From positions 152,832,001-152,896,000 of the forward strand of contig CM059431.1 in the NCBI GenBank assembly GCA_030390025.1: 64,000 nt of DNA, given 5' to 3'. The stretch comes from Squalus acanthias. Its lineage: Eukaryota. Positions 1-47,601 of the stretch are shown one piece after another. The position numbers and the translations under genes were made by a program. Every line of letters begins with the position of its first letter. The stretch's first letter is position 1. The notes beneath the pieces were generated by a model. It saw only the letters and a list, made by a program, of their open reading frames with translations, ran no database searches and was not told where the DNA came from.

Positions 1-1305
1 TTAAAAAGGCCTCTGACAGTGAGACTCTCTCTTTAAAAGTGTCTCCGATGGTGAGACTCCCTCTTTAAAAGGGTCCGTGATGATGGGACTCTCTCTTTAA
101 AAGGGGTCCCTGGTGGTTAGACTCTCTCTTTAAAAGGGGTCCCTGATGAATAGACTATCTCTTTAAAAGGTGTGCCTGATAGGAAGTATCTCCGTAAAAG
201 AGTTCCCTGATCAAAAGAGTCTCAGTTTAAAAGGGGTCCTTGATAAAAAGACAGTCTCTTTAAAAGTCCTAACTGACAGAAGGACTTCCTCTTTAACAGG
301 GCCTCTGATCATGAAACTGTCTCTGTCAAAGGGCTCCCTGATCGAAAAACTCCCTCTTTTAAAGGGTCTCTGACGGTGAGAATCTCTTTAAAATTAATTC
401 CTTTTGTTGAGACTCTCTTTTAAAAAGGTGTCTCTGATGGTGAGACTTCCTCTTCAAAAGGGATCCCTAATGGGGAGACTCTCTCGTTAAAAGGGGTCCC
501 TGATGGGGAGACTCTTTAAAAGGGGTCCCTGGTGGGGACACTTCCTCTTTAAAAGGCGTCCCTGATGGCGAAACTCTTTCTTTCAAAGCGGTCCCTGATG
601 CTGAAACTCCATCTGTAAAAGGAATTGTAATTATCACTTCAATGGTGAGACTCTCTCTTTATAAGGTGTCCCTGATGGTGAGACACCCTCTTTAAATGTG
701 ACCCTGATAGTGAATCTCTCTCTTTAAAACGGTTCCCTGATGGTAAGACTCTCTTTAAAAGGGCTCCCTGATAAAAAGACTCCCTCTTTAAAAGGGTCTC
801 TTATGGAGAGACTCCCTCTTTAAAAGAGGATCTGATGGGGAAAATTCCTCTTTAAAAGAGATCCCTAATGAGGAGACAACCTCTTTAAAACGGGTCCCTG
901 ATTGAGACACACCCTCTTTAAAAGGGACCCCTGATGGTGACATTCTCTCTTTAAACGGTGTCCCTAATAGGAAGATTCTCTTTAAAAGGGGTCCCTGATA
1001 GAAAGACTCCATTTTTAAAACTGGGTCGCCAATGGTGAGACTCTGTATTTAAACGGGCACCCTGATAAAAAGACTACCTCTTTGAAAGGGTCTCTGATGG
1101 CGAGACTACCTCTTTAAAAGGGATCCCTAATGGGGAGACTCTCTTTAAAAGGGGTCCCTGATTGAGAGAATCGCCCTATAAAAGGTTTCCCTGATGGTGA
1201 GATTCCCTCTTTACAAGTTGTCTCTCATGGTGAGGCACCCGCTTAAAAAGGAATCCCTGATGGTGAGTCTCTCTCTTTAAAAACGTACACTGATGCAGAG
1301 ACTAT
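1..1305 (+). repeat. 33-bp satellite array (segment 1)
   Basis: Tandem 31-34-nt units of TTTAAAAGGGGTCCCTGAT(GGTG/AGAA)AGACTCCCTC; the ORF track shows the matching 11-aa pseudo-repeat LKGVPDGETPS. Confidence 0.97.
621..641 (+). mobile_element. 21-bp relic of the 3' terminus of a foamy-like LTR
   Basis: GGAATTGTAATTATCACTTCA matches the LTR end at 29076-29096 (GGACTTGTAATTATCCCTTCA) at 19/21 positions, ends in CA and is not satellite sequence. Confidence 0.65.
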
Positions 1306-1665
1306 GGGGTAGAAATTAGGTCGCGCCCCATTTGGGGCCCAAATATCGTCCGGACGCAAATATTAGCGCCTGGCGCTAATTATCGGCACTGACAGGAAAC
1401 TTCACTTTTACCGCCCCGGGAGGTGAGTGGAGCGCTAAAGCAGGCGCTGCACACCTCTCTTAAGGAGCAAAGGCCAAGGAGTGAGGCGCTAACTCAGCGC
1501 ACGAGCGCAGCGCAGCTGCTGCCAGTTAGCGAGGGAACACAGACACACTGGCGCCGGCCACTTCTTAAAGCGGGGGGGGGGGGCACTTGCTCCCCAGCCA
1601 CACCCTGCTCATTGCAGCCTTGAATCTCAGCCTGGAGAGACCTGTAATCCATTTTGCAGCCAAGC

Positions 1666-3528
1666 ATGGAGAGGGTGAGAGAACGCGCTCATCGCTTCAC
1701 CGAGCGGGCCTTGGATGCTCTGGTTGACGCAGTGGAGCGCAGACGATGTATGCTGTTCCCTGAGAGTGGCAGGAGGCCTTTGCCACGCGAGTTCAGAAGA
1801 GTGTGGAGGGAGGTGGCTCAGAGCGTCTCCTCCAGGAGCATGGTGCCCAGGACCCATACTCAATGCCGCAAAAAGTTCAACGACCTCACTCGGGTCGTCA
1901 GGGTGAGTGGCTTTTAATCAATACCTCTCCATCCCTCCATCTCAACCTCACTCTATGGCCAGAGGGTCTTAAAACCCCACTGCACAACACTCATCCAACA
2001 CCTATGGCCCTTTCATCAAACACACACACACATTCCACACTTTACATACAGTAAGAGCTATTCACCTATGGGAGGCACATCAGGCAAGACCATGGGTGTA
2101 TTTTGTAAGGGCTATTCACCTATGGGAGGCACATCATGCAAGACCATGTCTGTATATTGTAAGGGCTATTCACCTATGGGAGCCACATCAGGCAAGACCA
2201 TGGCTGTATATTTACTCAGATGCTGTCCTTTTTCTTGCAGGCTAAGCTGGCTCATAATCGGAGACAGCAGCAACGGACGGGTGGAGGGCGGCTTCAGCTG
2301 CAACCACTCAGCGATCTGGAGGAGCGCGTCCACAGGATTGTGGCAAGCCGGGTGATCAGTCCCGTCGCCACTGGTGACGCCGACCCCGTTGTGGACAGCA
2401 TTGTCCTCTGTCCTTTCACTTGTCCCTCACAATACCAGCCTTTGACACTTTCAATCCAACTTGCTAACTCGCTGCACTTATTCCTCCCTTACTGCCACCC
2501 TGTCCTCACGCTAAAGCCACTCTTGTACCTCCCTGCTTTCAGATGGTGATTCACCAGCTGAGGAGACGGGCCCTGAAGCTGCCACTGGGAGTGATGCTGC
2601 AGCTGAGGAGAAAGAGGAAGCCAGAGCATCAGTGCCACCCTCTCCCGAGGAAGCCCATGCCCACACTGGGAACACGCCTTCCCCGGAGGGGAGCAGGGGG
2701 GAAGGGGCTGATGATGGTGAAGCTCCAGGACCCAGCGGGCTGCAGCAACGCCATGGGGGGGGGGGGGGTAGGGAAGAACGGGGGCCTTCTCCCCAGAGGG
2801 AGAGTATGCCAGACACTCCTACTGCAATGGACGCAGAGGAGGAGCGGCTGATTGCTGAAATGAACACCCAGGCGGTGGGCATGCACACTGAGCTCATGGG
2901 TGCAGTGGGAAGGGTGCCCGAATGCATTGAGTCACTGGCAAGGAGTGTGGAGCACTTCGCTGTAGCACAGGCGGATGCCACACTAACGCTTAGTGCTGCA
3001 ATTCAGTCACTGGCTGCCGTGATCCCACCTCTGACTGCTCTCATACAGACTCAGATGGAGGCCACGCGAGCACAGACTGCTGCCAACCTCGATGGTTCGT
3101 GCACATTTCCCCGGGGCTGTCACCGCGCCGCAGCAGGCCAGCAATCTGTTCTCCGGCAGATTGCTCCGGATGCTGAAGTGCTGCCCCGTGGGAGTGCCAG
3201 TGTGTCGGGCGAGCAGGGAGTTGCTGGCCTCTCTCACGATGACAGCATTCCTGCTGCCAACACTGTCACTTCTCCACTGCACTTGCCACCGCCTGTAGGA
3301 CAGACTGCTGCCGCCCATGCAGAGTTGGTGCAGTCTGCAGCCGGGCACTCCAGGCCCAGAAGTGGTCGAGGCCGTCCTTCAGGGGCATCTGCAGTGTCAG
3401 GCTCTGACGAGCAGCAGCCTTCCACCAGCCTTGCTGCAGCCACTGAGCTCCCATTACGGAGGAGCAGTAGGGTTAGAAGGGGGGAAGTGTGCAAGGGAAG
3501 GAGATCACCCTCGAAGGGCAAAAAGTAG
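1666..3528 (+). CDS. Harbinger Myb/SANT-like DNA-binding protein; predicted exons 1666-1902, 2241-2397, 2543-3528
   Basis: RFTERALDALV...WREVAQSVS...QCRKKFNDL Myb/SANT motif, continuing AKLAHNRRQQQRTGGG. Intron 1 is GTGAGT...TTGCAG. Intron 2 starts with GC and ends TTTCAG. Phases join in frame to the 298-aa ORF. Confidence 0.8.
2051..2213 (+). repeat. 54-bp x3 minisatellite in intron 1 of the Myb gene
   Basis: GTAAGRGCTATTCACCTATGGGAG... starts at 2051, 2105 and 2159. Confidence 0.9.
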
Positions 3529-3822
3529 GAGGTGTGCCAAAATACTGGTCATTTTTTTATTAAAGGCCGAGGTTCATGGTCCAACTTTTGTTTAGTGTTT
3601 TGGACATTATCTCCAGGTTGTGAGAACCAGTTATGTTATTGACTGTTTTTTTGTGTTTATTTCTATGAGTTTGTCATGAGGAATTGACACACACAGAGTT
3701 TGTAAAATAAATAAGTTTCTGTATTCAAAATATACATGGCTGGTGGTTGGAATTATTGGTGCCTTGGCCGGCTTAGGGGTTGCGTGCTGGGTTGATTAGT
3801 GTTTGTAGCAATGGCAGGGGCC

Positions 3823-4983
3823 CTAGAAGCGGCTTGCTATTCGTCGTTGACGGACGGCCCTTGCAGTTTGACCATTGTGGGCCGCCCTCCTGCCTTGGTG
3901 CTGCTGATGATCATCGTCCTCGTCCTCTTCCTCCTCTTCCTCCTCCTCCTCTGGTGGTGCTACAAGGCCTGGTGGCATTGGCTGGGTCCTGAGGATTGCC
4001 ATGTTGTGCAACATGCAGCACACGACTACGAAGTTCGAAACTTGCTCAGGCGAGTACTGCAGTGCTCCTCCGGAATGGTCCAGACAGCGGAACCGTTGTT
4101 TCAGCACGCCGATTGTGCGCTCAATAATGTTCCTGGTTGTTTGATGGCTTTCATTGTACCGCAGCTCAGCAGGGGTGTTTGGCGTACGGAGCGGTGTCAT
4201 CAGCCAGGTGCTCAATGCGTACCCCTTGTCCCCCAGAAGCCAACCAACTGGCTGATGCGGTGCCTCGAAAACTTCTGCCACAGTAGTCTGGCGCAGGATG
4301 AAAGCTTCGTGGCAGCTGCCCGGATAGTGGGCATTGACAGCGAGTATCACCTGTCTGTGGTCACAGACCAACTGCACATTCAAGGAATGGAACCCCTTTC
4401 TGTTCCTGAATTCCTCTGCATTCTCTCGCGGAGCACGCAAAGCCACATGCGTGCAGTCAATGGCGCCCTGCACCATGGGGAAGCCTGCTACCCTCGCAAA
4501 GCCCAGAGCACGGTCACGCTTCTTGTCTGGGGTCATAGGGAAAGAGATGAAGTCTCGTCTCCTTCTGAAGAGGGCATTGGTGACCTGCCGGATGCAGCGA
4601 TGCACCGCAAACTGGGAGATATTGGCGAGGTCCCCAACAGCAGCTTGGAATGAGCCAGTGGCGTAGAAGTTCAAAGCCACTGTGACCTTCACTGCCACCG
4701 ACAGAGACGTCCTGGACCTCAGTTGAGGCTGCAGATCTGGCTGCAGCAGGTGGCAGAGCTCAGTGACCACCTCCTTGCTGAATCGCAGCCTTCGCAAACA
4801 CAGCTCCTCGGACATATGGATGTAGGAGAGCTGTTCACGATATACCCTGGGAGGGTAAGCTCTCCTGTACATGCGCCTGATGGCCCTCCTCCGTCTGGCC
4901 ATCATTGCCACTCTCTGTCTGCGTCTCTGTATCCTCCGATTCAGCTGGAGCAGGACGACGCCCCCAATCATTGCAGCCCCCAT
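3823..4983 (-). CDS. Harbinger DDE transposase (HARBI1-like nuclease family), uninterrupted
   Basis: Motifs GAIDCTH, NRKGFHSLNVQLVCD, LLGDKGY, YNESH, IERTIGVLKQRFRCL, CCMLHN and an acidic tail; first ATG at 4983 within ORF 3823..5052. Confidence 0.95.
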   Translation of the reverse strand: MGAAMIGGVVLLQLNRRIQRRRQRVAMMARRRRAIRRMYRRAYPPRVYREQLSYIHMSEELCLRRLRFSKEVVTELCHLLQPDLQPQLRSRTSLSVAVKVTVALNFYATGSFQAAVGDLANISQFAVHRCIRQVTNALFRRRRDFISFPMTPDKKRDRALGFARVAGFPMVQGAIDCTHVALRAPRENAEEFRNRKGFHSLNVQLVCDHRQVILAVNAHYPGSCHEAFILRQTTVAEVFEAPHQPVGWLLGDKGYALSTWLMTPLRTPNTPAELRYNESHQTTRNIIERTIGVLKQRFRCLDHSGGALQYSPEQVSNFVVVCCMLHNMAILRTQPMPPGLVAPPEEEEEEEEEDEDDDHQQHQGRRAAHNGQTARAVRQRRIASRF

Positions 4984-7900
4984 ATTCTCTTTGCCAGAAA
5001 AGTAATGAGGTACAGCAACTAAAGTAGCAACAAAGTTAGGATGAATAGGCAAAACTACCTCACAAAGCGTTGAGTCAATGTAGAAGTCTCTCTCTCTCTC
5101 TCTCCGAATCTCTCTCTCTCTCTCAGAACGAGTGGTGCATAAATGTCGACCACAGAAAAAGACAGGAAGAGGCCCCCTTTAAATAGCGCCCCCCCACAGC
5201 CCCACACCGATTGATAACGTTCCAGTCTTCCGGTCGTTGGAAGCACAGGCGGTAAGGCAGGGGGCGCCACTCAATTTCCGCTCCGGGGCGCCCCAAGGGC
5301 GTTGCACCATGGAATTACGTCACAATCTGCGCGCGCAGGTGGTCGCAGCGGTAAGTTTTAGCGCAGCCGCACAATCTCAAGTTAAGTTCTCGAGCGGCGC
5401 AAACAGCGCTGCGCCCGGGCGTTAGCGGCTTAACGCCCCATTAGCGCCCTATTAAGGCGCTAACGGGAGGCGCATTCAAGTGCTCTATCTCTTTAAAAGC
5501 GGTCGCTGAAGCCTAAGCAGCCTCTGTAAGAGGGTTCCCTGATGATGAAACTCCCTCTTTAAAAGCGGTCACTGGTGTTGAGACTCTCTCATTAAAAGGG
5601 GTCCCTGACGGGTATACTCCCTCTTTAAATGGGGTCCTTGAAGGCGAGACGCTCTCTTTAAAAGGGGTCCCTTCTGGAATTTCTGTCTCATTAAAAGTGT
5701 TCCAAGACGGAGAAACTCAATCTTTAAAAGTGACCGTTGATGGTGAGATTCTATCTTTAAAAGGGTTCCCTGATGCTGAAACACCCTCTTTAAAACGGGT
5801 GAGACACACTCTTTAAAAGGGGTCCCTAATAGTGAGACACACTCTTTAATAGGGGACCCTGATGGTGAGAATCTCTCTCTATAAGGGGTGCCTGATAGTG
5901 AGACTCCATCTTTAAAATCGGTCCCTGATGGTGAGACTCCTTCTTTAAAAGGGATCCCTGATGGTAAAACTATCTTTAAAAGGGCTCCCTCATAGAATTA
6001 ATCCCTCTTTAAAAGGGGTCCCTGATAGAAAGTCTCCCTCTTTAAAAGTGGTTCTTGTAGGACAGACGCTCTCTTTAAAAGTCTCTCTGATGGTGAGACT
6101 ACCTCTTTAAATGTTCTCCCTGATTGTGAGACACCCTCTTTAAAAGGGGTCCCAAATTGGGAGAGTCTCTCGTTAAAAGTGTCCCTGATGGAGAGACTCC
6201 CTCTTTAAAAGGTTTCCCTGATAGAAAGACATCCTCTTTAAAAGGGCCCCATCATAGAAAGACTACCTCTTGAAAGCGAGCCCTGATGGTAAGACTCTCT
6301 TTAAAAGGGGTCCCTGATGGAGAGACTCTCTCTTTAAAAGGGGCCCCTGATGAGAGAATATCTCTTTAAATGCTGTCCCTAATGCCGAAACTCCCTCTGT
6401 AAAAGGGTTCCCAGATGGTGAGACTCCCTCTTTAAAAGATATCCCTGGTGGAGAGACTCTCTTTAAAAGGGTTCCCTGATGCTGAAACACCCTCTTTAAA
6501 AGGGGTTCCTGATGGTGAGACTCCCTCTTTAAAAGGGGACCTTGATGTCGAGATTCTCTATTTAAAAAGGTCCCCTGATGGGGTGGACTCCCTCTTTAAT
6601 AGGAGTCCCTGATGCTGAACACCCTCTTTAAAAGGGGTCCCTGATAGAAAGACGCCCTCTTTAAAAGGGGTCCCTGAAAGAAAGACTGTCTCTTTAAAAG
6701 GGGTCCCTGATGGTGAGCCTCCCCCTTTAAAAGGGGTTCCTGATGGTGAGACTCCATTTTTAAAATGGGTCCCTGAAGGTGTGACTCCCTGTTTAAAAGT
6801 GGTCCCTGATGGCGAGACTGCCTCTTTAAAATCGTTCCCTGATGGTGAAACCCCCGCTTTCAAAAGGGTCCCTAATGTTGATACTCCATCTTTAAATGAT
6901 CTCACTGATAGAAAGGCTCCCTCTTTAATAGGATCCCTGATGGTGAGACACCAACTTTAAAATATGTCACTGATGCTGAGACACCCTCTTTAAAAGGGGT
7001 CCCTGATGTTGAGAATCTCTCTTTAATAGGAGTCCCTGATGCTGAAACACAATCTTTAAAAGGGCTTCCTGAGAGAAATAAGCCCTCTTTAAATGGGGTC
7101 CCTGAAAGAAAGATTTTCTCTTTAAAATGTCTCCCCGAAGGAGAGGCTCACTCTTTAATAAGGGTCCGTGATGGCGAGACTTCCTCTTTAATAGGGGTCC
7201 TCGAGGGAGAGACTTCCTCTTTAATAGGGGTCCGTGATGGTGAGACTCCCTCTTTAAAAGAGGTCCCTGATGGAGAGTCTCTCTCTTTAAATGGGGTCAT
7301 TGAAGGAGATACTTACTCTTTAAAAGGGGCCCCTGATGGTGAGATTCGATCTTTAAAAGGCCCCTGATGCTGAAAAACCTCTTTAAAACGGGTGAGACAC
7401 CCTCTTTAAAAGGGGACCCTGATGGTGAGACTCTCTCTTTAAAAGGGGTCCCTAATGGTGAGATTACATCTTTAAAGGGTGTCCCAGATTGTGAGACCTA
7501 TTCTTCAAAAGGGTCCTTAATGTGGAGACTGTCTCCTTAAAACGGGTCCATGATAGAAAGACTCTCTTTAAAATGTGTCCCCGAGTGTGAGACACCTCTT
7601 TAAAGCGGTCCCTAATAGAAAGACTCTCTCTATAAAATGGGTCCCCGAATGTGAGACACCTCTTTATAAGGGGTCCCTATTAGAAATACTCTCTCTTTAA
7701 AAGAGCTCCCTGATAGAAAGACTCCCTCTTTCAAAGGGATCCCTGATGGTGTGACTTTCTCTTTAAAAGGGGTCCCTGATGGTAAGACTACCCCTTTAAA
7801 AGGGGTTCCTGTTGGCGAAACTCTCTTTTTAAAAGGCGTCCCTGATGCTGAAACTCCCTTTTTAAAAGTGGTCCCAGATGGTGAGCCTCTTTAAAATGTT

Positions 7901-10343
7901 CCCCAAATGGGGAGGCTCTCGCTTTAAAAGGGGTCCCTGATAGAGAAACGTTCTCTTTAAAAGTGGTTTCTAATGGTGAGTCTCCCTCTTTAAAAGGGGT
8001 CCCTGATGGTGAGACTCCCTCTTTAAAAATGGTCCCTGACGCTGGAACTCACTCTTTCAAAAGGTGTCCCTGATGGAGACACTCCCTGATTAAAAAGGAT
8101 CTCTGATGGGTGAGACTCGCTCATTAAAAGGGGTCCCTGATTGTAAGACTCACTTTAAAAGGGCTCCGTGATAGAAAGACTCCTTCTTTAAAATGTGTCC
8201 CTGATGGCGAAAATCTCTCTCTAAAATGGGTCCCTGATGTTGAGACTCCTTCTTTAAAGGGTTCCCTGATGCCGAAACTCTCTCTTTAAAAGGGTTCGCT
8301 GATGGTGAGAGTCTCTCTTTAAAAGGGGTCCCTGATGGCGTGACTCACTCTTTAAAGGGGGTCCCTGATGGAGAGACTAACTCTTTAAAAGCGCTATTGA
8401 TGCTGAATCTCCCGCTTTCAAACGATGTCCCTGATGGCGAAACTCTCTCTTTAAAAGCGGTCAATGATGGTGAGACTCCCTCGTTAATAGGAATCCCTCA
8501 TGGTGATACTCCCTCTTTAATAGGAGTCCCGGATGCTGAAACACCCTCTTTAAAAATATTCTCTGAAGGGGGTACACCCGCTTTAAAAGCGGTCGCTGAT
8601 GGTGAGACTCCCTCGTTAATAGGAGTCCCTGATGCTGAAACACCCTCCTTAAAAGTGGTCCCTGATGGTATGCCTCTCTAAAAGGGGTCCCTAATAGGTA
8701 GACTCTCTCATAAAAAATTGTCCCTGGTAGAAATAAACTCTCTTTAAAAGGAGACCCCGAGGGTGAGACTCCTTCTATAAAGAGGGGCACCTGAATTTGA
8801 GACATCCTCAATAAAAGGGGCACTTGATGGTGAAACTCCCTCGTTAAAAGGAATCGCTGATGGTGAGACGCACTCTTTAATAGGGTTCCCTAATGGTAAG
8901 ACTCACTTCAAAAGGGATCCCTGAAAGAAAAACTTCCTCTTTAAAAGGGGACCCTGATGGCGAAACTCTCTCATTAAAAGGGGTCCCTGATGGTGAGAAT
9001 GCCTCTTTAAAAGGGGTCTCTGATTTTGAGACTCCTTCTTTAAAAGGGGCCCATGATTGTGAGTCTCCCTCTTTAAAAGGGGCCCCTGATGGTGAGTTTC
9101 CCTCTTTAATAGGAGTCCCTAATGCTGAAACCCTCTGTTTAAAAGGGGTCCCTGTTGGAAAAACTCTCTTTAAAGGTGTCCCTGATAGAAAGACTCTCAC
9201 ATTAAAAGGGGTCCCTGAAGTGGATACAGCCTCTTTAAAAGGGGTCCCTGATGGTGAGACTATCTCTTTAAAAGGGGCGCATGATTGTGAGTCTCCCTCT
9301 TTAAAAGGTGTCCCTGATGTTGAGACTCGCACTTTAAACTGGGTCCCTGGTGGAGAGACTCTCTCTTAAAAGTGGCAATGATGGTGAGTCTCCCTCATTA
9401 AAAGGTGTCCCTGATTGTGAGACACACCCTTTAAAAGGGGTCCCTTTTTGGGACACCCACTCTTTAAAAGGATCCCTTATGGTGAACCTTCCTCTGTTAA
9501 AAGGACCCCTGATGGGGAGATTCCCTCTTCAAAAGGGATCCCTTATGGTGAGACTCCCTCTTTAAAAGGGGTCCCTTTAAGAAAGACTCTGTCTTTAAAA
9601 GGGTTCACTGATGATGAGTCTCCCTCTTTAAAAGGGGTCCCTAATGGCGAGACCCCCCTTTAAAAGGGATCCCTGATAGAAAAACTCTCTCTTTAGAAGG
9701 GGTCCCTGATGGTAAGTCTCCCTCTTTTAAAAGGGTCCCTGATGGTGAGACATCAACTTTAAAAATGTCTCTGATGGTGAGACTCCCGCTTTAAAAGTAT
9801 TCCCTGATAGAAAGAGTCCTTCTTTAAAAGGGATCCCTGATAGAAAAACTCTCTCTTTAAAAGGGGTCCCTGATGGTGCGACTCACTCTTTAAAATGTGT
9901 CCCTGATGTTGAGATTCCCTCTTTAAAGGGGGTCCGTAATCAGAGACTCTCTTTAAAAAGCTCCCTGATAGAAAGAAGCCGTTTTAAAAGTGTCTCTGAT
10001 TGTGAGACACCCTCTTTAAAAGGGGTCCCTGATGTCGAGACTCTCTCTTAAAAAGCGTTCCCTGATGGTGAGACTCTCTTTAAAAGGGCTCCATGAGAGA
10101 AACACTCCCTCTTTAAATAGGTGTCCCTGATGGTAAGGCACCCCCTTTAAAAGGGGTGCCTGAGACAAAGACTCTCTCTTTAAAAGGCTTGCCTTATGGT
10201 GAGACTCCGTCTTTATAAGGGGTCCCTAATGGTGAGACACCCTCATTAAAATGTATCCCTGAGTGTGGGAGTCCCTCTTTAAAATGAATCCCTGATGGTG
10301 AGATTCACTCTTTAAAAGGGGTTCCCCAAAGAAGGACTCCATT

Positions 10344-10466
10344 AAAGCAGGGACAGGGTACTGGATTTGGATGATCAGCCATGATCGTATTGAATGGTGG
10401 AGCAGGCTCGACGGGCCGAATGGCCTACTCCTGCTCCTAGATTCTATGTTTCTATCTATGTTTCTA
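10344..10466 (+). mobile_element. Extremely 5'-truncated CR1 LINE, or tail of a CR1-dependent SINE
   Basis: GATCAGCCATGATC...GAATGGTGGAGCAGGCTCGACGGGCCGAATGGCCTACTCCTGCTCCT followed by a (CTATGTTT)n tail; absent from the duplicated satellite site near 13160. Confidence 0.88.
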
Positions 10467-10659
10467 AAAGGGGTCCCTGATGGGGAGACTGCCGCTTTAA
10501 AAGGGGTCCTTGATGGTTGGTGAGACTCCCTCGTTAAAAGGGGTCCCTGTTGGTGAGACTACCTCTTTCAAAGGGGTCCCTGGTGGAGAGACTCTCTCAT
10601 TAAAAAGCTTCCCTGACGGAGATACACCCTCTTTAAAAGGGGTCCCTGATTGTGAGACT

Positions 10660-11035
10660 CCTTTTAAAGAGGGAGTTTCAGCATCAGGGACACCTTTTAA
10701 TCAGATAATCTCCCCATTAGTGATCACTTGTAAAGAGGGAGTCTCACAATCAGACACCCTTTTAAAGAGGGAATCTTTCTATTAGGGACCCCTTTTAAAG
10801 AGGGCGTCTTTCTATCATTTTAAAGAGAGTCTCCCCATTGTGGACCGCTTTTAAGAGGGAATCTCACCATCTGGGACACATTTTAAAGAGGGTGTTTCAG
10901 CATCAAAGTCTCTTATCAAAGAGGGAGTCTCCCCCATCAGGGAAGCCTTTTAAAGAGAGACTCTCGACATCAATGACCCCTTTTAAAGAGGGAGTCTCAT
11001 CATCAGGATCCCCTTTCAAATAGGGTTATTTCAGC
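10660..11035 (-). repeat. Inverted satellite block (copy 1)
   Basis: Monomers read as reverse complement (AAAGAGGGAGTCTCACAATCAG...) between plus-oriented monomers. Confidence 0.92.
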
Positions 11036-13508: not shown

Positions 13509-14273
13509 GGCCCGAAAATTAGACCTAATACGGGAGATTACGTACTGTGTGCTCTCGCGTATTAGGTCCCGAAGTGCCGGTTTCCTGCATGCACTGCGGA
13601 TGCGCGGGAAACCGGCACTTCGGGTATTGCGAAGGGGGCGGTTCCTAAGTGAATTGCGTGCGCGCTACAGGTTGTGCACATGCAGCGCAGTTAGATTTTT
13701 TTTCAGGTTTGAACGCGCAGGTAAGTGTTGAAGATTTTACACATAATGAAAGCAGGCGTAAGACCCACATTTAACAAGGTAAGTAGCTAATTAAGTTTTA
13801 TTTTAAATTTTTTTAAACAGGTTTATATTTTTTAGAGACTTTAAAGAAAGGTAAGTTTATTTTTATAACTTTTAAAAAGAATTTAATTTTTTTCAAATAT
13901 TTAAATTTTTGTTTAAAGTGGTTAATTTATTTAACTATAGTTATTTTATTAATGTGATGGCTTTTTTTAAATTTAATTGAGGTTTAGCTGTTCTTTTGGG
14001 GGCTTGTTGTATTCATAGTTTTGACAGCTCTTGCTGTCAAAAGTATGAATGAAAGATGGTGTGCTGCCATTGGCTCTAACTGGCCCACGTGATACCAGAG
14101 GTAGCATCGAACTAACTGCGCCTCTGGGACACGCACACACTGCGCACCAGAACCAGGGGGAGGCCCAGGAACTGAAGTTCGTGTGGGCCAAAAACCATAA
14201 GGGTAGGCATGGAGTGCGATATCGCGGGGGATCCTTACACCCGCGGCAACCATCGAAGTCCAATTTCTGGGCC
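13509..14273. mobile_element. Non-autonomous Harbinger-type MITE (765 bp)
   Basis: TIRs GGCCCGAAAATTAGAC / GTCCAATTTCTGGGCC; 3-bp TSD ACT (13506-13508 and 14274-14276); internal palindrome AAGTGCCGGTTTCCTGCATGCA...TGCGCGGGAAACCGGCACTT; AT-rich core; no transposase. Confidence 0.88.
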
Positions 14274-15314: not shown

Positions 15315-15550
15315 AAAAACATAAGAACATAAGAAATAGGAGCAGGAGTAGGCCAATCGGCCCCTCGAGCCTGATCCGCCATTCAATAAGATCATGGCTG
15401 ATCTGATCCTAACCGCCAATCTACTATCTATCACAGAACCATCTCCTGCATCTAACAGAATTGCACACACGAAATAGGAGCAGAATCAGGCTACACGGTC
15501 CCTGGGCCCGCTCCACTACCCACAGGGCCATGACCGATCCGAACCTAGAC

Positions 15551-18427: not shown

Positions 18428-18539
18428 TCTGTCCCTTTATGCCACGCTCTGATTTGTGATTCCCCTACTGCTACCTATGTCTATGACCCTCTCTGTTGTC
18501 ATTTTTATTTTTTGCTCTCTTGAAACCTCCCCCCCACTA

Positions 18540-19496: not shown

Positions 19497-19711
19497 TCTA
19501 TGTAATTAATTAAAATTTATTATTTACCCTTCAGTTAATTTATGCCAGCAGTCTCCGCTACACCACAGATACCCGAGAAACTATAAACTATGGAATTGAA
19601 GTTTTGTATAAAAAAAAGAGAAATACTCACCAACCAATCACTTACCTGCTTTCTGGTGACGTCACACTTCGATTATTTTTTACCTCTCTCCTGCTCTCGG
19701 CTTGGTGAAAA

Positions 19712-26300: not shown

Positions 26301-26454
26301 AGAGGCCCCTGATGGTTAGACTCGCTCTTTAAAAGTGTCTCTGAAGGTGAGTCTCCCTCTTTAAAGCACACCCTGATAGAATGACTCCCTCTTTACAAGG
26401 AATCCCTGATGGCGATTCTCTCTCTTTAAAAGAGGTCCCTGATGGTAAGACTCT
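23324..26454 (+). repeat. 33-bp satellite (segment 5)
   Basis: Same monomer. Confidence 0.96.
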
Positions 26455-27397: not shown

Positions 27398-27407
27398 AAG
27401 GCGGGGC
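27398..27407 (+). promoter_or_regulatory. Polypurine tract (degenerate)
   Basis: AAGGCGGGGC immediately before the TGTGAAGG start of the 3'LTR. Confidence 0.65.
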
Positions 27408-32000: not shown

Positions 32001-35000
32001 TCATTCTTTAAAATGGATCCCTGATGTTGAGACTCTCGCTTTAAAAGAGATCCCTGCTGATGAGACTCACTCTTTAAAACTGGTCCCGGATGGTAAGACT
32101 ATCTTTAAAAGGGGACCCTGAGAGAAAGACTCCCTCTTTAAAAGGGGTCCCTGTTGTTGTGACTCTCTATTTAAAAGGGATCCCTGATGGTGAGACTCCC
32201 TCTTTAAAAGGGGTTCCTGATGGTGAGGCTCCCTCTTTAAAAGGTGTCCCTTTTGGGGAGACTCCCTATTTAAAAGGGATCCTGATGGGGAGACACCCTC
32301 TTTAAAAGATGTCCCTGATGAAGATACACCCTTTTTAAAAGGTGTCACTGATGGAGACTCTCTTTCTTTAAAAAGGGGTACCTGATGGAGGGGACATAAT
32401 CTTAGAATAAGTGGCTCCTCTTTCAAAACTGAGATGAGGAGAAACTTTTTCACTCAGCGGGTAGTGGGTCTGTGGAATTTGCTACCCCAGGAAGCTGTGG
32501 AAGCTACTTCATTAAATAAATTTAAAACAGAAATAGACCGTTTCCTAGAAGTAAAGGGAATCAGGGGTTACGGAGAGCGGGCTGGAAATTGGACATGAGT
32601 TTGACTTCGGATCGGTCAAGGCCCTGTGGGTGGCGGAGCGGGCCCAGGGGCCGAGTGGCCTGGTCCTGCTCCTACTTCTTGTGTTCTTTAGAGTTGGGGT
32701 TGGATCAGATCAGTCATGATCTCATTGATTGGCGGAGCAGGCTCGAGGGGCTGGTGAGACTGCTTCTTTAAAATGTGTCCCTAATGGGGAGACTCTCCCT
32801 CTATGGGGTCCCTGATAGAAAGACGCCCAAATTAAAAGGGGTACCTGATAGAAAGACTCTTTCTTTAAAATGGGTCCCTGATGTTGAGACTCACTCTTTA
32901 AAAGGGGTCGCTGATTGTAAGACTCACTTTAAAAGGGCTACCTGATAGAAAGACTCCCTCTTTAAAAGGGTCTCTGATGTTGAGTCTCCCTCTTTAAAGG
33001 TACTCCCTGATAGAAATACTCCCCATTTAAAAGAGATCCCTGATGGTGAGACATCTTCTTTAAAAGGGATCCCTAATGGGGACACTCTCTCTTTGAAAGG
33101 TGTTCTTGAAAGAAAGACTCCCCCTTTAAAAGGGTCCCTGATGGTGAGATTCTCTCTTTAAAAGCGGCCCATGATAGAAAGAATCTCTCATTAAAATTGG
33201 TCATTGATGGTGAGACTCACTTTATAAAAGGGGTCCCTGATGGTGAGATTCACTTTTTAAAAGGGGTCCCTGACGGTGAGACTCTCTCTTTAAAATTGGT
33301 CATGATGTTGAGACTCTTTCTTTAAAAGGAGTCTCTGATGCATAACCTCCCTTTTTAAAATTGTTCCCTGAAGGTGAGCCTCTTTAAAAGGGGTCCCTAA
33401 TGGGGAGACTTTCACTTTAAATGGGGTCCTTGAAAGAAAGAATCCCTCTTTAAAAGTGCCTCTGATGGTGAGATTCTCTCTTTAAAAGGGGATCCTGATG
33501 GTAAAGCTCTCTTTAAAAGTGCTTCCTGATGGTGAGACTCTTTCTTTAAAAGGGACCACTGATCGACAGACACCCTCTTTATAAGGGATCAATGACTGTG
33601 AGACTCTCTCTTTAAAATTGGTCATGATGTTGAGACTCTTTCTTTAAAAGGAGTATCTGATGTATATCCACCCTTTTTAAAAGTGGACCCTGAAGGTGAG
33701 CCTCTTTAAAAGGGGTCACTAATGGGGAGACTTTCACTTTAAAAGGGGTCCTTGAAAGAAAGACTCCCTCTTTAAAAGGATCGCTGACGTTGAGATTCAT
33801 CTTTAAAATTAGTCCCTGATGGTGAGACTCCCTCTTTAAAAGGGGGTCCTGAGTGTGAGACTCACCCTTTAAAAGGGATTCCTGCTAGAAAGACACCATC
33901 TTTAAAAGCATCTCTGACGGTGAGATTCTCCAATAAATTGGTCCCTGACGGTGAGCCTCTTAAAAAGGGGTCCCTAATGTTGAGACTCTCACTTTAAATG
34001 GGGTCCTTGAAAGAAAGAATCCCTCTTTAAAAGGGCCTCTGATGGTGAGATACTCTCTTTAAAAGGGGAACCTGATGGTGAGAGTAACTCTGTAAAAGGG
34101 GACCCTGATGGTAAGGCTCTCTTTAAAAGTGTTTCCTGATCGTGAGTCTCCCTCTTTAAAAGTTATCACTGATAGAAAGACTTTCACTTTAAAAGGGGTC
34201 CATGATGGTGAGACTCCCTCTTTAAAAGGGGTCCCTGATGGTGAGATTTCCTCTTTAAAAGGGGTCCCTGATAGTGAGACTCCCTCTTTAATCGGAATCC
34301 CTCATGCTGAAACATCCTCTTAAAAAGGGGTCCGCAAAGGTGAGACAGATTCATTAAAAGTGTCCCTAATGGGGAGACTCTCTCTTTCTGGTTTCCCTGA
34401 TAGAAAAACGCTTTTTTAAAAGGGATCCTTGATAGAAAGACTCTCTCTTTAAAATGGGAAACTGATGGTGCGACTTCATCTTTAAAAGAGGTCCCTGATG
34501 GTGAAACTCTATCTTTAAAACGGTTCCCTCGTGGAGAGATCCTCTCTTTAAAAGGGGACTCTGATGGTGAGATTTCCTCATTAAAAGGGATCCGTAATGG
34601 GCAGACTCTCTCGTTTAAAAGGGGTCACTGATGTTTAGACTCCCTCTTTAAAAGGTGTCCTTTATGGTGAGACTCCCACTTTAAAAGAGATCTGTGACGG
34701 TGAGACTTCTTCTTTAAAAGGGTTCCATTCTGGGGTGATTCTCTCGTTAAAAGGGGTCCCTGATCGTGAGACTTCCTCTCTACGGGACCACTGATAGAAA
34801 GACGTCCTCTTTAAAACGGGTCCCTGATAGAAAGACTCTCTCTTTAAAATTGTTCCCTGATGATGAGACTCACTCTTTAAAAGGGGTCGCTGATTGTAAG
34901 ACTCACTTTAAAATGGCTACCTGATAGAAAGGCTCCCTCTTTAAAAGGGTCTCTGATGGTGAGTTTCCCTCTTTAAAAGTACTTCCGGATAGAAAGACTC

Positions 35001-37075: not shown

Positions 37076-38501
37076 TGAAGGGATAATTACCAGTCGTAGC
37101 ACTTCGGGCTACCCCAGATAAGGCGTATTGCCCAGACGTTCACCTTCAACTACAGTTAGAGATAGCCGAATCCGAGAGACGCTTAATTGGGTCTACAGGT
37201 TCAAACTATCTCTCCCTAAAGGAAAGGACCGACTTGAAGACGTTACCGTCCTCCAGATCGCACTTTTAATAAGTTTAAATAGACTGTAAAGATCTGGATA
37301 TTATGAGGGTCCGGGAAACACCACAGAATTCTGCTACTCCTCACAAAAAAGCGTTCAAAATTGAGTTCTCGAGATTGATACAGAAGTACTATGTGAGACA
37401 ATTCTAAAAATATTTAGATTTATTAAAGAGCCGGCATAAACTTAACAGTTGGTGATTTCAATCGCAACTTTAAAACTTCAAAATTCAAATGACTTACATT
37501 TCTTATCAGAGATCCTTATTCTCAAATCTTAACTTCGTTACATTTCCAAATTCGTACATATTTATAATCCAGAATATCCATCAAAATCAAATAAAAGTTA
37601 ATTTTGATCCCCGAGACTAAAAAAGATAAAAATTTACAGAGGCTGCCTCTGAAGTTGAGAATCGCTTTGACGCTTCCAGCGACTTCTAACTTCCTATCTG
37701 AAAGCACTATATTTTATACCCTTTTTTGCAGTGGTATATTCTTTGAAGATTTCTTCTGATGTAAGCTAATTATCTCCAGTCATCTTTCTGTTGACTTCTT
37801 TCTATTCTTACTTTCAATTCAGCTGCTAACTTGCAGAATTCTGTCTCTATCTTTAGGTGTTCGAAGTTATCATACAAAATGGTCATGACAGTTGTATCAA
37901 TTTGATGACATTCTTACGAAGGTCTCCTGTTGATTTCTTAAATTACTTTAACTGCTTGTATTACAGACTTCGCATCTCCTTGTGTTCCAATTTCAACACA
38001 TAAACCATGTGATTACTTGATGCATCTTCTGTTTTTACCTTTTACAATATGTAAATCAAAGCACTTCAATCGAGTACTTGATTGTTTCACTAGCCATCTT
38101 AGTTGGTTATATTACAAACTTATGTTTCCTGTCTTTCATTTGATGTTACTTTTACAAAGACACATGGTTTTTTAATGCTCTGTGTTTCTGTTCGAAGTGT
38201 TAGTTTATAACACGTTAAACTGGGTATAGCTATTGTGTTGGTTCCAAACTGCAGACTTCTTGGAACCTACAATCCTCTGTTTCAATGAGGCCATTGTCTC
38301 ATTGTCAATAACCAATTCCTATTTCATAAGCTTGTATGGTGTTTCCGGCTTTGTGACTCATCGTATCTCAGAAGCCTGTATTTACAGTTTTTTGTCATTC
38401 AGGCTTTTAGATTTTTAAATCCAGTTTGCCATATTTTAATAAAACCAGAATTCTGTTCATAGGATGGTGTATTTTTCTGAAATATGTCTAATTCCTTTAC
38501 A
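37076..38501 (-). mobile_element. Solo LTR (1426 bp) of the foamy-like family
   Basis: Reverse complement runs TGTAAAGGAAT...ATTATCCCTTCA; perfect 4-bp TSD CCCT (37072-37075 and 38502-38505). Confidence 0.93.
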
Positions 38502-41500
38502 CCCTGACGGGGATACCTCCACTTTAAAAGTAGACTCTGATGCTGAAACACCCCCTTTAAATAGGTTCGCTGATGCAGAGAATTCCTCTTTAAAAAGTGT
38601 CCCTGGTGGAGAGATCCTGTCATTAAAACGGGTCCCTGAAGGTGATACTCCCTCTTCAAAATGGGACCTAATGGCGAGTCTCTCTCTTTAAAAGGTGTCC
38701 CTGATGGGGAGACTCCCTCTTTAGAAGGGGTCGCTGATTGTGAGACTTCCTCTTTTAAAGGGGTCCCTGGAGGTGAGACTCCCTCTTCAATAGGAGTCCC
38801 AGATGGTGAGACTGTCTCTTTAAAATGTGTCGCTAATGGGGAGACCCCCTCTTTAAAAGGGGTCCCTGATAGTAAGACACTCTCTTTAAAATGGGTCCCC
38901 GAGGGTGAGACCCCAACTTTAAAAGGGGACCCTAATTGAAAGACTCTCTCTTTGAATGTTTTCCCTGATGGTGAAACTCCCTGTTTAAAAGATGTTACTG
39001 ATTGTGACGCTCCCTCTATAAAAGGGTTCCCTGAGGGTGAGATTCTTACTTTAAAAGGGCTGCCTGATAGAAAGACTCCCTCTTTAAAAGGGTCTCTGAT
39101 AGTGAGACTCCCTCTTTAAAAGGGCTCCCTGATAGAAAGACTCACTTTAAAATGTTCACAGACGGTGAGACTCTTTCTTTAAAAGTGATCCTTCATGGTG
39201 AGACTCACTCTTTAAAAGGGCTCCCTGATAGAAAGACTCCCTCTTTAAAAGGGTCTCTGACGGTGAGACTCTCACTTTAAAAGTGATCCCTGAATGCGAG
39301 ACGCTCTTTATAAAAGGTGTCCCTGGAGCGACTCTCTCATTAAAAGGGGTTCCTGACAGGGATACCCCCTCTTTAAAAGGGGCCCCAGTTGGTGAGACTA
39401 TCTATTTAAAAGGGGTCTCTGATGGGGAGACGCCCTCTTTAAAAGGGATCGCTGATAGTGAGACTTCCTCTTTAAAAGGGTTCCCTGATGGTGAGACTAC
39501 CTCTTTAATAGGAGTCTCTGATGCTGAAACATCCTCTTTAAAAGGGTTCCCTGATAGTGAATCTGCCTCTTTAAAAGGTTCCCTGATAGAAAGACTCACT
39601 CTTTAAAAGGTATCCCTGATGGTGAGACTCACTCTTTTACTGGGAACCCTAATGGTGAGACTCATTCTTTAAAAAGGCTCCCTGATAGAAGGACACCCTC
39701 TTTAAAACGGTCAGTGACCGTGAGACACTATCTTTAAGAGTGATCCCTGATTGTGAGACTCTCTCTTTAAAAGGGGTCCCTGATGTTGAGACTTCCTCTA
39801 AAAAAAGGTCACTGATGGTGAGACTCCCTCTTTAAAATGGCTCCCTGTTAGAAAGACTCACTCTTTAAAAGGGATATCTGATGGTGAGACTCTCTCTTTA
39901 TAAGGGGTCCCTGATGGTGAGACTACCTCTTTAAAAGGGGCACTGATAGAAAGGCTCTCTTTTTAAAATTGATTCCTGATCGTGTGACTCACTTTTTAAA
40001 AGGGGTCACTGATGGTGAAACTTCCTCATTATAGGGGTTCCCTGATATTGACACTTATTCTTTAAAGGGGTCCCTTATGGAAAGACTCACGTTTTAATAG
40101 GGATCCCTGACGGGGATACTCCCTCTTTTAAGGGGCCCCTGATGGCGAGGCTCTCTATTTCAAAGGCGTCCCTCATGCTGAAACACACTCCTTAAAACGT
40201 GTCCCTGATGGTGAGACTCCTTCTTTAAAAGGGGTCCCTGATGGCGAGAATCTCTCTTTAAAAGGGATCCCTGATGGTGAGACTCCCTCTTTAGAAGGGG
40301 TCCCTGATAGAAAGACTCTATTTTTAAAGGTAGTCCCTGACGGGGATACTCCCCCTTTAAAGGGGCACCTGATGGATAGGCTCTCTATTTGAAAGGGGTC
40401 CCTCATGCTGAAACACCCTCTTTAAAAAGGGTCCCTGATGGTTTGTCTCCTTCTTTAAAAGGGGTCACTGACGGCGAGACTCTCTCTTTAAAAATGATCC
40501 CTGTTTGTGAGATTCTCTCTTTAAAAGGGATCCCTGATGATGAGACTTCCTCTTTAAAAGGGGTCACTGATGGTCAGACTTCCTCTGTAAAATGGCTGCC
40601 TGTTAGAAAGACTCCCTCTTTAAAAGGGTCTCTGATGTTGAGTCTCCCTCTTTAAAAGGCCTCCCTGATAGAAAGACTCCCTCTTTAAAAGGGGTCCCTG
40701 ATGGTGAGACTTCCTCTTTAAAGGGGTCACAGGTGGAGAGACTCTCCCATTAAACGGTGTGCCTATTAGGTGATTCTCTTTAAAAGGGGTCCCTGATAGA
40801 AAGACTCCCTCTTTAAATGGGTCTTTGACGTTTAGATTCCCTCTTTAAAAGGGATCCCGAATGGCGTGACTCTCTCTTTAATATGGGTCCCAGATGGGAA
40901 GACCTCATCTTTAAAAGTGGTCCATGATGGGGAGACTCCCTCTTCAAAAGGGCTCCCTGATAGAAAGGCTCCCTCTTTAAAAGGGATCCCTGATGGTGAG
41001 ACTCACTCTTTAAAAGGGCTCCCAGATAGAAAGACTCCATCTTTCAAATGATCTCTGACGGTGAGACTCTATCTTTAAAAGGTGTGCCTGATGGTGAGAC
41101 AACCTCTTTGAAAGGGGTCCCTGATGGTGAGACTCCCTCTTTAATAGGAGTCCCTGATGCTGAAACACCTATTTTAAAAGGGATCCCTGATGTTGAGATT
41201 GCCTCTTTAAAAGATTTCACTAATGGGGAAAATTTATCTTTAAAAGGGGTCCCTGATAGCAGACGCCCTCTTTAAAAGGAGCCCCTGTTAGAAAGAATCC
41301 CTCTTTAAAAGGAGTCCTTGGTAGGAAGACACTCTCTTTAAAATATGTTCCCGAGGGTGAGACTCATTCTTTAAAAGGGCTCCCTGATAGAAAGACTCAC
41401 TCGTTAAAAGGGTCTCTGATGGTGAGACTCCCTCTTCAATGGGAGCCCTAATGGGTAGATTCTCTCTTTAAAAGCGGTCCCTGATGGTGAGACTCACTTT

Positions 41501-44374
41501 ATAAAAGGGGTCCCAGAGCGTAAGATTCACACTTTAAAGGGGATACCTGATGGTGGGAAATCAGTTCTTAAAAAGGCTCCCTGATGGAAAGACTCCCTCT
41601 TTAAAAGGGTATCTGATGATGGGATTCTCTCTTTAAAAGGGGTCCCTGATTGTGAGATTCCCCGTTTAAAAGGGATCCCTGATGGAGGCACTCACTATTT
41701 AAAATGTGTCCCTAATAGGAAGATTCCATTTTAAGGTGTCTCTGATAGAATGACTTTATCTTTAAAGGCGTTCCTGCTGGTGATTCTCCTTAAAAGGGGT
41801 CCCTGATGGTGAGACACCCTCTTTAATATGAGTCCCTTTTGCTGAAACACGCTTTTTATAAGGATACCCTGATGGCGAGCTACATTAAAAGGGGTCCCCA
41901 ATGGGGAGACTCTCTTTATAAAGGGGTTCCTGATGGTGAGAATCACTCTTTAAAAGTTGTTCCCATTGGTGAGAATCCCACTTTAAAAGTGGTCCCTGAT
42001 ATGAGACTCCCTCTTTAAAAGGGGTCCCTGATGGTGAGACTCCCTCTTTAAAAGGTATCCCTGATGGTGATACTCTCTCATTAAAAGGCATCCCTGATGG
42101 TGAGACCATCTCTTTAAATGCGCTCCCTGAAGGTGAGACTCTCTCTTTTTAAAAGGGTTCCGTGATTGTGATACTCCATCTTTTAAATAGGCCCCTAATA
42201 GAAAGACTCCATCTTTAAAAGTGTTCCCTGATGGGGAGAGAACTTCTATAAAAGGGTTCCCTGATAGTGAGACACCCTCTTTTAATTTTGGCCCGGATGG
42301 AGACACTACCTCTTTAAAAGGATTCACTGATAGAAATACACCCACTTTAAAAGAGGTGCTTGATAGAAAGACATTCTCGTAAATAGGGGTCGCTGATTGT
42401 AAGACTCTCTCTTTAAAATAGGTCCCTGATGGTGAGACTCACTCTTCAATAGGAATCCCTTATGCTGAAACAACCTCTTTAAAAGGATTCCCTGATGGTG
42501 AGACTTCCTCTTTAAAAGCGGTCCCTGATAGTGATACTCTCTATTTAAAAGGTGTCCCTGATGGGGAGACACCATCATTAAAAGGTGTCCCTGATAAAGA
42601 CACTCAATTATTTAGAACGGGTACCTGATGGTGAGACTCCCTCGTTAAAATAGGTCCCTGCAGGGAATAATCCCTCTTTTAAAGGGGCCCTTGATGTTGA
42701 GATAATCTCTTTAAATGGGGATCCTGATGCTGAAACACCCTCTTTAAAACGGGTCCCTGATGTTGCGACTCCCTCTTTAAAACGGGTCCCTAATGGTATG
42801 ACTACCTCTCTAAAAGCGGTCCGTGATGGTGAAACTCACTCTTTAAAAGACATTCCTGACAGGGGCACTCCCTCTTTAACAGGGGTCCCTAATGGCGAAT
42901 CTCTCTCTTAAAAAGTGGTATCTGATAGATAGACTCTCTCTTTATAATGGGTCCACGAGGGTGAGACTCCCTCTTTAAAAGGGTTCCCTGATGGAAAAAC
43001 TCTCTCTTTAAAAGGGGTCCCTGATGGTGAGACTCCCCACTTAATAGGAGTCCCTGATGCTAAAACACCCTCTTTAAAGGTGTCCCAATAGGAAGATTCT
43101 CTTTAAAGAGGTCCCTGATAGAAAGACACTCTCTTTAAAAGTTGTCCCTGATGGTGATACTCTCTCTTTAAAAGTCTTCCCTGATGGAGAGACTGTATCT
43201 TTAAAAGCGTTTCTAGATGGTGACACTCTCTCTTTAAATGGGGTCAAAGATGGGGAGACACCCCCTTTAAAAGGCGTACCTGATGGAGACACTCGAAACT
43301 TTAAAAGTTGTCCCTGATAGTGAGACTCTCATCTCAAAAAAATGTTCCCTAATTGGAAGATTCTCTTTAAAAGGAGTGCCTGATAGAAATAAATCCTCTT
43401 TAAAAGGTGTCCCTGATGGTGAGAGTCCTTCTTTAAAAAGGGTCCCTGGTGGACTGAATCTCTCATTAAAAGGAGTTACTGAAAGGGATGCTCCCTCTTT
43501 AAAATGGGTCACTGATGGTGAGACTATCTCTTTAAAAGGAATCCCTCATGGTGAGACTCACTCTTTAAACGGGGACCCTGCTGGTAAAACGCTCTTTAAA
43601 AGCGTTCCCTGATAGAAAGACTCCCTCTTTAAAATGGACTCTGATATGGAGACTCCATCTTTAAAAGTTCTCCCTGATAGAAGGAGTCCCTCTTTAAAAG
43701 GGATCCCTAATGGCGAGACTCTCTCTTTAAAAGGGATCCCTTAAGGTGAGTCTCCCTCTTTAAAAGGGCTCCCTGATGGTGAGACACCCTCTTTAAATAT
43801 GGTCCCTGATGGTGAGACTCTCTCATTAAAAGGGTCCCTCTTAGAAAGAAACCCTCTTTAAAAAGGGTCCTTGATAGAAAGTCATTCACTTAAAAAGTGG
43901 TCCCTGATGTTGAGACTCTCTCATTAAAACTGTCCCTGATAGAAAGATGCCCTCTTTAAAATGGGTCCCAGATAGAAAGTCTCTGTCTTCAAAATGGGCC
44001 CAATAGGTAGAGTCTCACTCTTTAAGAGGGGTTTCTGAAAGAAAGTCTCTATCTTTAAAAGAGTTCCCTGACGGTCAGCATCACTCTTTAAAAGCGTTCC
44101 CTGCTGGTGAGAGTCCCTCTTTAAAACTGTTCGCTGATGGCAAGATTCTCTCTTTAAAATGCGTCCCGGATGATGAGACACACTCTTTAAATGGGCTCCC
44201 TGATGTTGAGACTCCCTGTTTAAAAGGGGCCCATGATGGGGAGATTATCTCTTTAAGAGTGGTCCCTGATGCTGAAACACGCTCTTGAAAAGGGGTTCCT
44301 TTTGGTGAGACTCTCTCTTTAAAACACGTCCCTGCTGGCGAGACTCTCTCTTTAAAAGGGGTCTCTGATGGGGA
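38502..44374 (+). repeat. 33-bp satellite (segment 7)
   Basis: Same monomer. Confidence 0.96.
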
Positions 44375-45794
44375 TGTGAAGGAATAGCCATATTCAGAAA
44401 AATACACCTTGCTATGAAATATTGTGACTTAATTAAACATGACAAACTGGGCTTGCAAATCTGAAAACCTCAGAAGCTGTAAACAGAATACAGGCTTTTG
44501 AGATAAAAATAGTTGTTGACACTCAAACAATAGCCTCATTGAAACAGAAGTTTAAAGTTTCCTGAAAGTCTGAAGCCTTGGAAATGAACACAATACCATA
44601 CCCAGTTGAAGGTGTCTTGAACCAATACTTTGAAATAAAACAGAGAACATTAAATAAACATGTGCCTTTGTAAAAATGACATCAAGTAAAAGGAACACCT
44701 GCCATCAAATCATTTTTATGTTAAACTTTGAACACGGAGACAGGAGTTTGTGTTTATACCAACTGAGCTAAGAAGACAATGAGATACCCGGTTGAGGTGT
44801 TTTTAATTTACATATTGGAAAAAGATACAAAAAGAATACTTTCATAAATATGACATCACTAGATGCAACAGCCTTCACATTGTTTCTGTGTGGAACTTGG
44901 AACACCTAGGACACCCGAAGTCTGTAATACAACCAGCTGAGGTGACTTAAGAATTTAATAGAAGTCTTTCGTAAGAATGGCATCAAATAGACACATCTGT
45001 TACAACCGTTTTTTTATGATGAACTTGGAACACCTAAAGGAGGGGACATAATTCTACTAAAAACAAGCTGAACTAACTGTAAGAATAGAAGGGGTCAAAA
45101 GAAATGTGACTAGTGATAATTAACTTACATCAGCAGAAAACTTCAAAGGATATACCACTGAGAAAGAGTATAAATATATAACTTACAAATGGGAAGACAG
45201 AATTCGCTGGAAGGAGCAAACCTGTTCTCAGACTTAAGAGGCAAGCTCTGTAAGTTTTCAATTCTTTAAGACTCGGGTATCAAGGTATTTGATATTGCTG
45301 GATGTCCTGGAATAAGACTAAGTAAGAAATGTAAAAGTGTAGAGAAGTTAAGATTTGAGAATAAGGAGCACTGATGATAAGAATTGTAAGCTTTTTGTAT
45401 TTTGAACTGTTAATGTTGCTACTGAATCACCAACTGTAACTACATCTTGGTTCTTTAATAAATCTGTATATTTTTTTAGAATTATCTCACACAGTACTTC
45501 TGTATCAAATTCGCGAACTCAATCTCTGTACACTCTTTGAAGAGGAGTTGCAGAATTCTGGGGGAGTTTTCCAAATCCTCATAATATCAGGAAGGTCACA
45601 GTCTAGCTAAACTTATTAAAAGTGCTATCTGGAGGACGGTAACATCTTCAGGTCGATCCTTTCCTATAGGGAGAGATAGTCTGGACCTCTAGACCCAATT
45701 AAGCGTCTCTAACTTTAGTTGAAGGTGAACGCCTGGGGAATACGGCTGATCCGGGGTAGCCCAAAAACGGCTAGAACTAATAATAATCCTTTCA
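44375..45794 (+). repeat. 5' LTR (1420 bp)
   Basis: TGTGAAGG...CCTTTCA; TATAAA at 45169 and AATAAA at 45457; homologous to the other two complete LTRs. Confidence 0.93.
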
Positions 45795-47600: not shown

Positions 47601-47601
47601 T

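Follow-up and report, generated by a model that had tools for sequence, protein, structure and literature searches.

Organization of the locus

The window, i.e., the whole 64,000-nucleotide stretch of Squalus acanthias DNA analyzed here, begins with a 33-bp tandem repeat spanning 44.4 kb, after which comes a mobile-element cluster. Foamy-like retroviral DNA lies within or directly beside this array at four places. For comparison, contigs from four of nine listed runs (three coded organisms) were aligned on positions 26250–29300, with depth serving as a rough guide and not as a copy count; because at best 27% of the words in the solo-LTR region were present in a run, these runs probably derive from relatives rather than from the same species.

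1–44374, + strand: diverged 33-bp satellite array; satellite accounts for ~29.6 kb, two short blocks are inverted, and segmental duplications are old
620–641, + strand: 22-nt relic of an LTR 3′ end, ending in CA; left joint to satellite via a short AGGA microhomology, remainder of the element deleted
26455–29096, + strand: deleted provirus (173-bp 5′ LTR stub, integrase end, ~300 bp, purine tract, 1,689-bp 3′ LTR)
26455–26627, + strand: 173-bp stub left of the 5′ LTR in the deleted provirus, matching the 3′ LTR start at 156 of 173 sites
26627–27407, + strand: integrase C-terminal end, short downstream stub, and purine-rich tract adjoining the 3′ LTR; SH3_11, 85.6% identity to 51031–51512
27408–29096, + strand: 3′ LTR of the deleted provirus, 1,689 bp, TG...CA, with internal U3 duplication; empty-site joint from 26453 to 29100 in four of four runs
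37076–38501, − strand: solo LTR, 1,426 bp, with a perfect CCCT 4-bp target duplication
44375–45794, + strand: 5′ LTR of a decayed provirus, 1,420 bp, followed by GT and the primer site
45797–45810, + strand: primer-binding site TGGCGCCCAACGTG, 2 nt past the terminal CA
46057–47559, + strand: decayed gag with stops and frameshifts; weak Gag_FV_central match
47556–51512, + strand: decayed pol (protease, RT, RNase H, and integrase ending in a foamy-type SH3), then a short stub, from profile and similarity matches

The four insertions had been located in an earlier note made from the letters alone, and all four were confirmed, with the relic refined to 620–641 and the deleted provirus to 26455–29096.

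Satellite monomers were on average 80% identical to the majority unit (803 monomers, gap-free scoring), with uniform values along the array (79–81%), and segmental duplications within the array are likewise old (90–95% identity). This level of monomer identity argues against an actively homogenized core, although it does not by itself locate the array; for the (peri)centromeric position assumed in the earlier note, we found no support. The two inverted satellite blocks (10650–11034 and 14526–14918) have the same junctions and lie inside a 990-bp duplication of 91% identity. A 238-aa frame at 38399–39115 was rejected as a gene and treated as a chance frame, because it has no Pfam match and runs from satellite into the LTR.

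The provirus starting at 44375 is interrupted at 51512 by CR1/Tx1-type DNA, so that satellite is seen on its left flank only, and it may mark the array edge. Past this point, a 68-bp stretch present at 51513–51580 and 58941–59008 (95.6% identity) brackets a 7.4-kb block with a Tx1-like LINE (zinc knuckle, RT); the pair may stem from a long duplication or from the 5′ ends of two CR1 copies.

A foamy-like endogenous retrovirus

Judged by similarity, with FLERVs compared by description, the element is a foamy-like (spuma-related) endogenous retrovirus, and the family assignment of the earlier note therefore stands. The RT of the provirus at 44375 matched the foamy PR-RT with an E-value of 1e-74 (vs 2e-22 for Ty3 and 6e-18 for MLV), and its integrase is homologous to that of PFV (E 6e-45, next match 8e-7), a virus with which the element also shares the 4-bp duplication. 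Among 31 database matches, the top 13 had the foamy Pol architecture, at 39–42% identity. The primer site, which we take to be of the tRNA-Lys type, lies directly past the 5′ LTR, as expected for a foamy-like element.

The Gag_FV_central match in gag was weak (E 0.017) and below the Pfam cut-off, as was SH3_11 in the deleted provirus (E 0.0045, below the curated Pfam cut-off). Database searches with the decayed gag found no true relative, with all Atlas matches below 0.9, and a match of Gag to a tandem-repeat bird protein was discarded as spurious. The RT search at near lengths yielded no match. An LTR motif occurring three times in the window, and in none of 100 shuffles, was found at 0 loci in metagenome and viral contigs. 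No env or accessory gene was recognized in the two internal regions, of which the deleted copy has just ~300–600 bp between integrase end and 3′ LTR and the other is cut at 51512. The region from integrase end to 3′ LTR (27100–27407) was covered in all four runs, including one X1 contig with a depth of 197 that spans into the LTR, which suggests that the env-less layout is common to several copies.

FLERVs have been described from sharks (PMC5512871; ERV-Spuma in PMC10699275; both in excerpt). With the FLERVs of fish, sharks, and amphibians, as far as the available text of these accounts describes them, the element shares a foamy-type RT and integrase, long LTRs, a tRNA-Lys-type primer site, the 4-bp duplication, and decayed copies; the excerpted sources give a tRNA-Lys primer-binding site for most mammalian foamy viruses (PMC5512871) and 4-bp duplications as the rule for fish FLERV copies (PMC5210030). 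It differs from them in that no env was recognized in either copy, in its purine tract/LTR border, which reads GGGCTG rather than the GGGTG motif given for teleost copies in the portion available, and in its association with satellite, which does not appear in the accessible parts of three FLERV accounts (PMC5512871, PMC5210030, and PMC10699275).

Four separate integrations

Next to the identity of the family, the history of the individual copies can be read from their ends and target sites. Relative to the monomer, the target 4-mers begin at phases 32, ~8–10 (in a 31-bp variant monomer), 27, and 2, on both strands, and the top matches of each flank do not include the flank of another foamy insertion, which agrees with the earlier description of different flanks and a different monomer position for each. 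A sequence-specific targeting of one fixed monomer position fails on these four differing phases and two strands. A clustering of phases was also rejected, as chance alone would place four starts inside an arc of 14 nt with a probability of 0.34. The three full LTRs were 78–80% identical to each other in pairwise comparisons. Because of this low LTR identity and the four phases on both strands, the four insertions are separate events, in line with the independence claimed before.

The 4-bp target duplication is perfect at the solo LTR, and its length is backed by empty sites at the deleted provirus. At the latter, the duplication has decayed (CTCT/TTAT), but empty paralogous monomers within the window, at 742 and 30858, read CTCT, and contigs from four of four runs skip 2,646 bases, i.e., the 2,642 bases of the element plus 4. 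The deleted provirus thus entered by a normal 4-bp integration. Its 3′ LTR, ending at 29096, is ~265 bp longer than the other two LTRs owing to an internal tandem duplication in U3 (27750–28120).

This insertion is old, because the two LTR starts show 17 differences over 173 sites and because a contig of another organism (organism D; record 26 of run X8) bridges the deletion junction. From these differences, over 173 sites only, we estimated an age of 61–171 Myr if sites change at 0.5e-9 per year, as PMC10699275 (available in part) assumes for the catshark, or 15–43 Myr at 2e-9.

For the relic, the 21-mer at 621 has 2 mismatches to the end of the 29096 LTR. When 4,478 LTR 21-mers were scanned against satellite-only DNA, two matches with ≤2 mismatches were obtained, both from the LTR end and both at the 620–641 relic, while ≤3 mismatches gave 7 matches. 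By these counts the relic is not a chance match, though very little of the element is left and a single junction is present. The idea that it joins an LTR start to an LTR end was discarded, since its left part is in register with the monomers and such a fusion yields no duplication. The LTR start at 44375–44385 (TGTGAAGGAAT) loosely resembles a common satellite monomer variant (TTTAAAAGGAAT), a microhomology that may favor deletions like the one that formed the relic.

Other mobile elements in the array

The foamy-like copies do not have the array to themselves. Satellite masking left nine gaps of ≥40 bp before 44370, corresponding to two foamy insertions, one stretch of degenerate satellite (43285–43351), and six other inserts, which the earlier note had passed over:

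1304–5477, − strand: Harbinger-type DNA transposon; transposase ORF 3823–5178, DDE_Tnp_4 E 7e-38
10343–10465, + strand: CR1 3′ tail fragment, 86–93% identity to the CR1 tails at 15337–15403 and 63542–63645
13513–14272, no strand: MITE judged Harbinger-type by eye; inverted ends, 3-bp ACT duplication
15315–19937, − strand: near full-length CR1 with open ORF1 (esterase) and ORF2
22673–23314, no strand: unclassified 640-bp piece, CR1-5′-like by eye; no BLAST match elsewhere in the window
32389–32751, + strand: CR1 3′ fragment, 79% identity to 15360–15760

Overall, six of the ten inserts in 1–44374 are non-foamy (three CR1, two Harbinger-type, and the unclassified piece). By bases, CR1-like DNA makes up 13% of this stretch (unclassified piece included), Harbinger-type DNA 11%, and foamy DNA 9%. 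The earlier statement that no other LTR family occurs in the 44 kb holds for seven of the eight gaps of ≥40 bp up to 44374 other than the degenerate satellite, counting the two foamy ones; for the eighth, at 22673–23314, it is left hanging on an unclassified piece.

The CR1 at 15315–19937, with both ORFs open, looks much younger than the foamy copies. Its 5′ end (19712–19938) carries three near-identical 76-bp GC-rich repeats. Both Harbinger-type inserts, at 1304 and 13513, lie near monomer phase 7–10.

Copy number, likely local excess, and probable dispersal

Summed contig depth over R-U5 reached 170,000–427,000 in run X1 and 335,000–342,000 in run X2, compared to ~12–30 for most long pieces. 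Allowing for overlap and capture, LTR copies would number in the thousands or tens of thousands, with a rough range of 4,000–50,000. The four LTR ends in 44 kb correspond to ~90 per Mb, i.e., ~5–160 times the genome average for 4,000–50,000 copies in an assumed 3–7 Gb, so that on these rough copy numbers a local excess over the genome average is likely. Some of it is likely particular to the foamy family: the 13% of CR1-like DNA in the array is not above the level of 21.78% given for the whale shark, a different species (PMC8455134, in excerpt), and the excess is in this sense selective.

The same runs speak to where the rest of the family lies. Across the four runs, we counted 74–495 satellite depth-bases per LTR, compared to ~7,400 in this array, a ratio in which sequencing coverage cancels. 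By this indirect measure, the family reads as dispersed, and these values suggest that most copies lie outside this satellite. Satellite at the density of this window could host 1–7% of LTR ends (raw depth ratios, not copy numbers). Depth figures may, however, under-count satellite that lies in long contigs, and a one-sided tenfold correction raises the hostable share to 10–27% for organism A, 28–34% for run X8, and 46–67% for run X6. In simulations, capture was similar for both components, at 4–70% of bases for satellite pieces and 6–50% for pieces of the other two LTRs. Among the 15 joints and 24 loose ends listed for 26250–29300, none connects LTR sequence with a different flank at either 26455 or 29096, which we regard as neutral evidence.

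A probable ordinary accumulation in gene-poor DNA

Given these observations, we lean slightly towards an ordinary pile-up, in which an abundant and old foamy-like family with a bias for gene-poor chromatin was retained in gene-free DNA. The insertions were made by integrase, with 4-bp duplications, at unrelated monomer phases, and by three LTR lineages ~20% apart. In this reading, a long-lived, gene-free satellite block took in a very abundant and old family on at least four occasions spread across tens of millions of years. Decay of the copies followed, by LTR–LTR recombination, which left the solo LTR, and by deletion, which left the gutted provirus and the 22-nt relic; CR1 and Harbinger-type elements entered the same satellite block. 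The local excess would then come from a large supply of copies, the usual foamy bias towards gene-poor chromatin of the lamina type, and a lack of selection against insertions, and probably not from recognition of satellite or centromeric chromatin.

This explanation is consistent with the predominance of non-foamy inserts, the lack of a fixed phase, the huge R-U5 depth, the low number of satellite bases per LTR, and the age of the deleted provirus. It also fits wild-type PFV, which avoids genes and favors lamina-associated domains in HT1080 cells (PMC6282019; PMC12125541, the latter in excerpt). On the other side, ~90 LTR ends per Mb is high for passive retention alone, the excess is foamy-selective relative to CR1, and a tenfold under-capture would bring the hostable share to the 46–67% obtained for X6. 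In addition, the preference of PFV varies with cell type: in HepG2 cells, the wild-type virus favors promoters, and lamina domains are disfavored (PMC6282019).

Targeting and chance as alternatives

The excess could alternatively result from real targeting, with an integration complex biased to satellite or centromeric chromatin like that of Tal1 in Arabidopsis, which we consider unlikely. The array was struck by three LTR lineages, the excess is foamy-specific relative to CR1, and precedents exist in the available text of PMC5857280: Tal1/ATCOPIA93 of Arabidopsis lyrata inserts into centromeric satellite arrays, a targeting demonstrated by mapping new insertions, and KERV has accumulated densely at wallaby centromeres. 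Like Tal1 and KERV as described there, the elements studied here are LTR elements found repeatedly inside a satellite array; unlike them, these are old copies of a family that apparently lies mostly elsewhere. The depth ratios indeed place most copies outside satellite, the array is 20% diverged, and it took up six other inserts. Satellite-targeted integration, the central proposal of the earlier note, is accordingly not borne out, with a raw hostable share of 1–7% of LTR ends and other element classes also entering the array.

The mechanism proposed for such targeting has to be turned around. The earlier note invoked tethering of Gag to nucleosomes as the route to centromeres, yet this runs the wrong way, because in PFV it is the loss of tethering that leads there: the tether-dead Gag mutant R540Q integrates at centromeres (PMC6282019; PMC12125541, seen as an excerpt), whereas wild-type PFV is not centromere-directed. 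This redirection by R540Q is itself a point for targeting and leads to a sharper hypothesis, namely a naturally tether-less lineage, and the shark elements may correspond, in nature, to the PFV Gag mutants that lack nucleosome tethering. That a shark foamy-like lineage has preferred (peri)centromeric satellite over many lineages and tens of Myr, perhaps through a lost or changed Gag nucleosome anchor, is in our view quite unlikely.

As criterion for the tether, we used the Y-x-x-R arginine anchor (foamy CBS, invariant Tyr537/Arg540). The state of the chromatin-binding motif is not readable in this Gag: the C-terminal region (47174–47298) is open in three frames, one with a Y-x-x-R match and another with a loose look-alike, and the searches gave no intact relative for comparison. 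A further difference from PFV lies in the integrase, where the residue at 50558–50560, aligned to the target-DNA contact Ala188, is Arg, which may be real or due to decay. PFV integration prefers a central pyrimidine-purine step (PMC4005685, in the portion available). Such a step is present in one of the four target 4-mers as it stands and in a second in the majority monomer, against a background of 15.7%, and four sites are uninformative in this respect.

Equally, the cluster could be a product of chance, with no real enrichment, if one window with a very abundant family was picked afterwards from many; we see this as improbable. For 50,000 copies in 3–7 Gb (assumed genome sizes), 0.8–7 of 185 stretches would be expected to carry ≥3 copies and 0.06–1.3 to carry ≥4, and no more than three of the four events are large, with one event at the array edge. 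For 4,000–20,000 copies, at most 0.05 of 185 stretches would be expected to carry ≥4, and among 185 windows chance accounts for four copies only at the upper end of the 4,000–50,000 range.

Finally, a multiplication or shuffling of one or two insertions by array duplication is very improbable and largely refuted already: the array does hold segmental duplications of 90–95% identity, the duplication at the deleted provirus is imperfect, and the relic is nearest to the LTR end of that provirus, but the LTRs are merely 78–80% alike and sit at four phases on both strands, none of the top matches of each flank is the flank of another foamy insertion, and empty-site contigs show the expected 4-bp duplication.

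Implications

In a literature covered by titles and abstract beginnings, and with most subscription journals outside coverage, we found no paper on satellite-associated foamy-like elements in sharks. The locus represents a well-preserved record of an abundant foamy-like family entering and decaying in satellite DNA, with empty-site monomers alongside. If a genome-wide bias were real, it would bear on whether pile-ups of retroviruses at vertebrate centromeres reflect targeting or retention, and would tie this question to the Gag tether mutants of PFV. Should a tether-less lineage prove true, it would show in the germ line a phenotype known for PFV from the laboratory, and would give vertebrates a retroviral equivalent of the centromere-targeting elements of plants.
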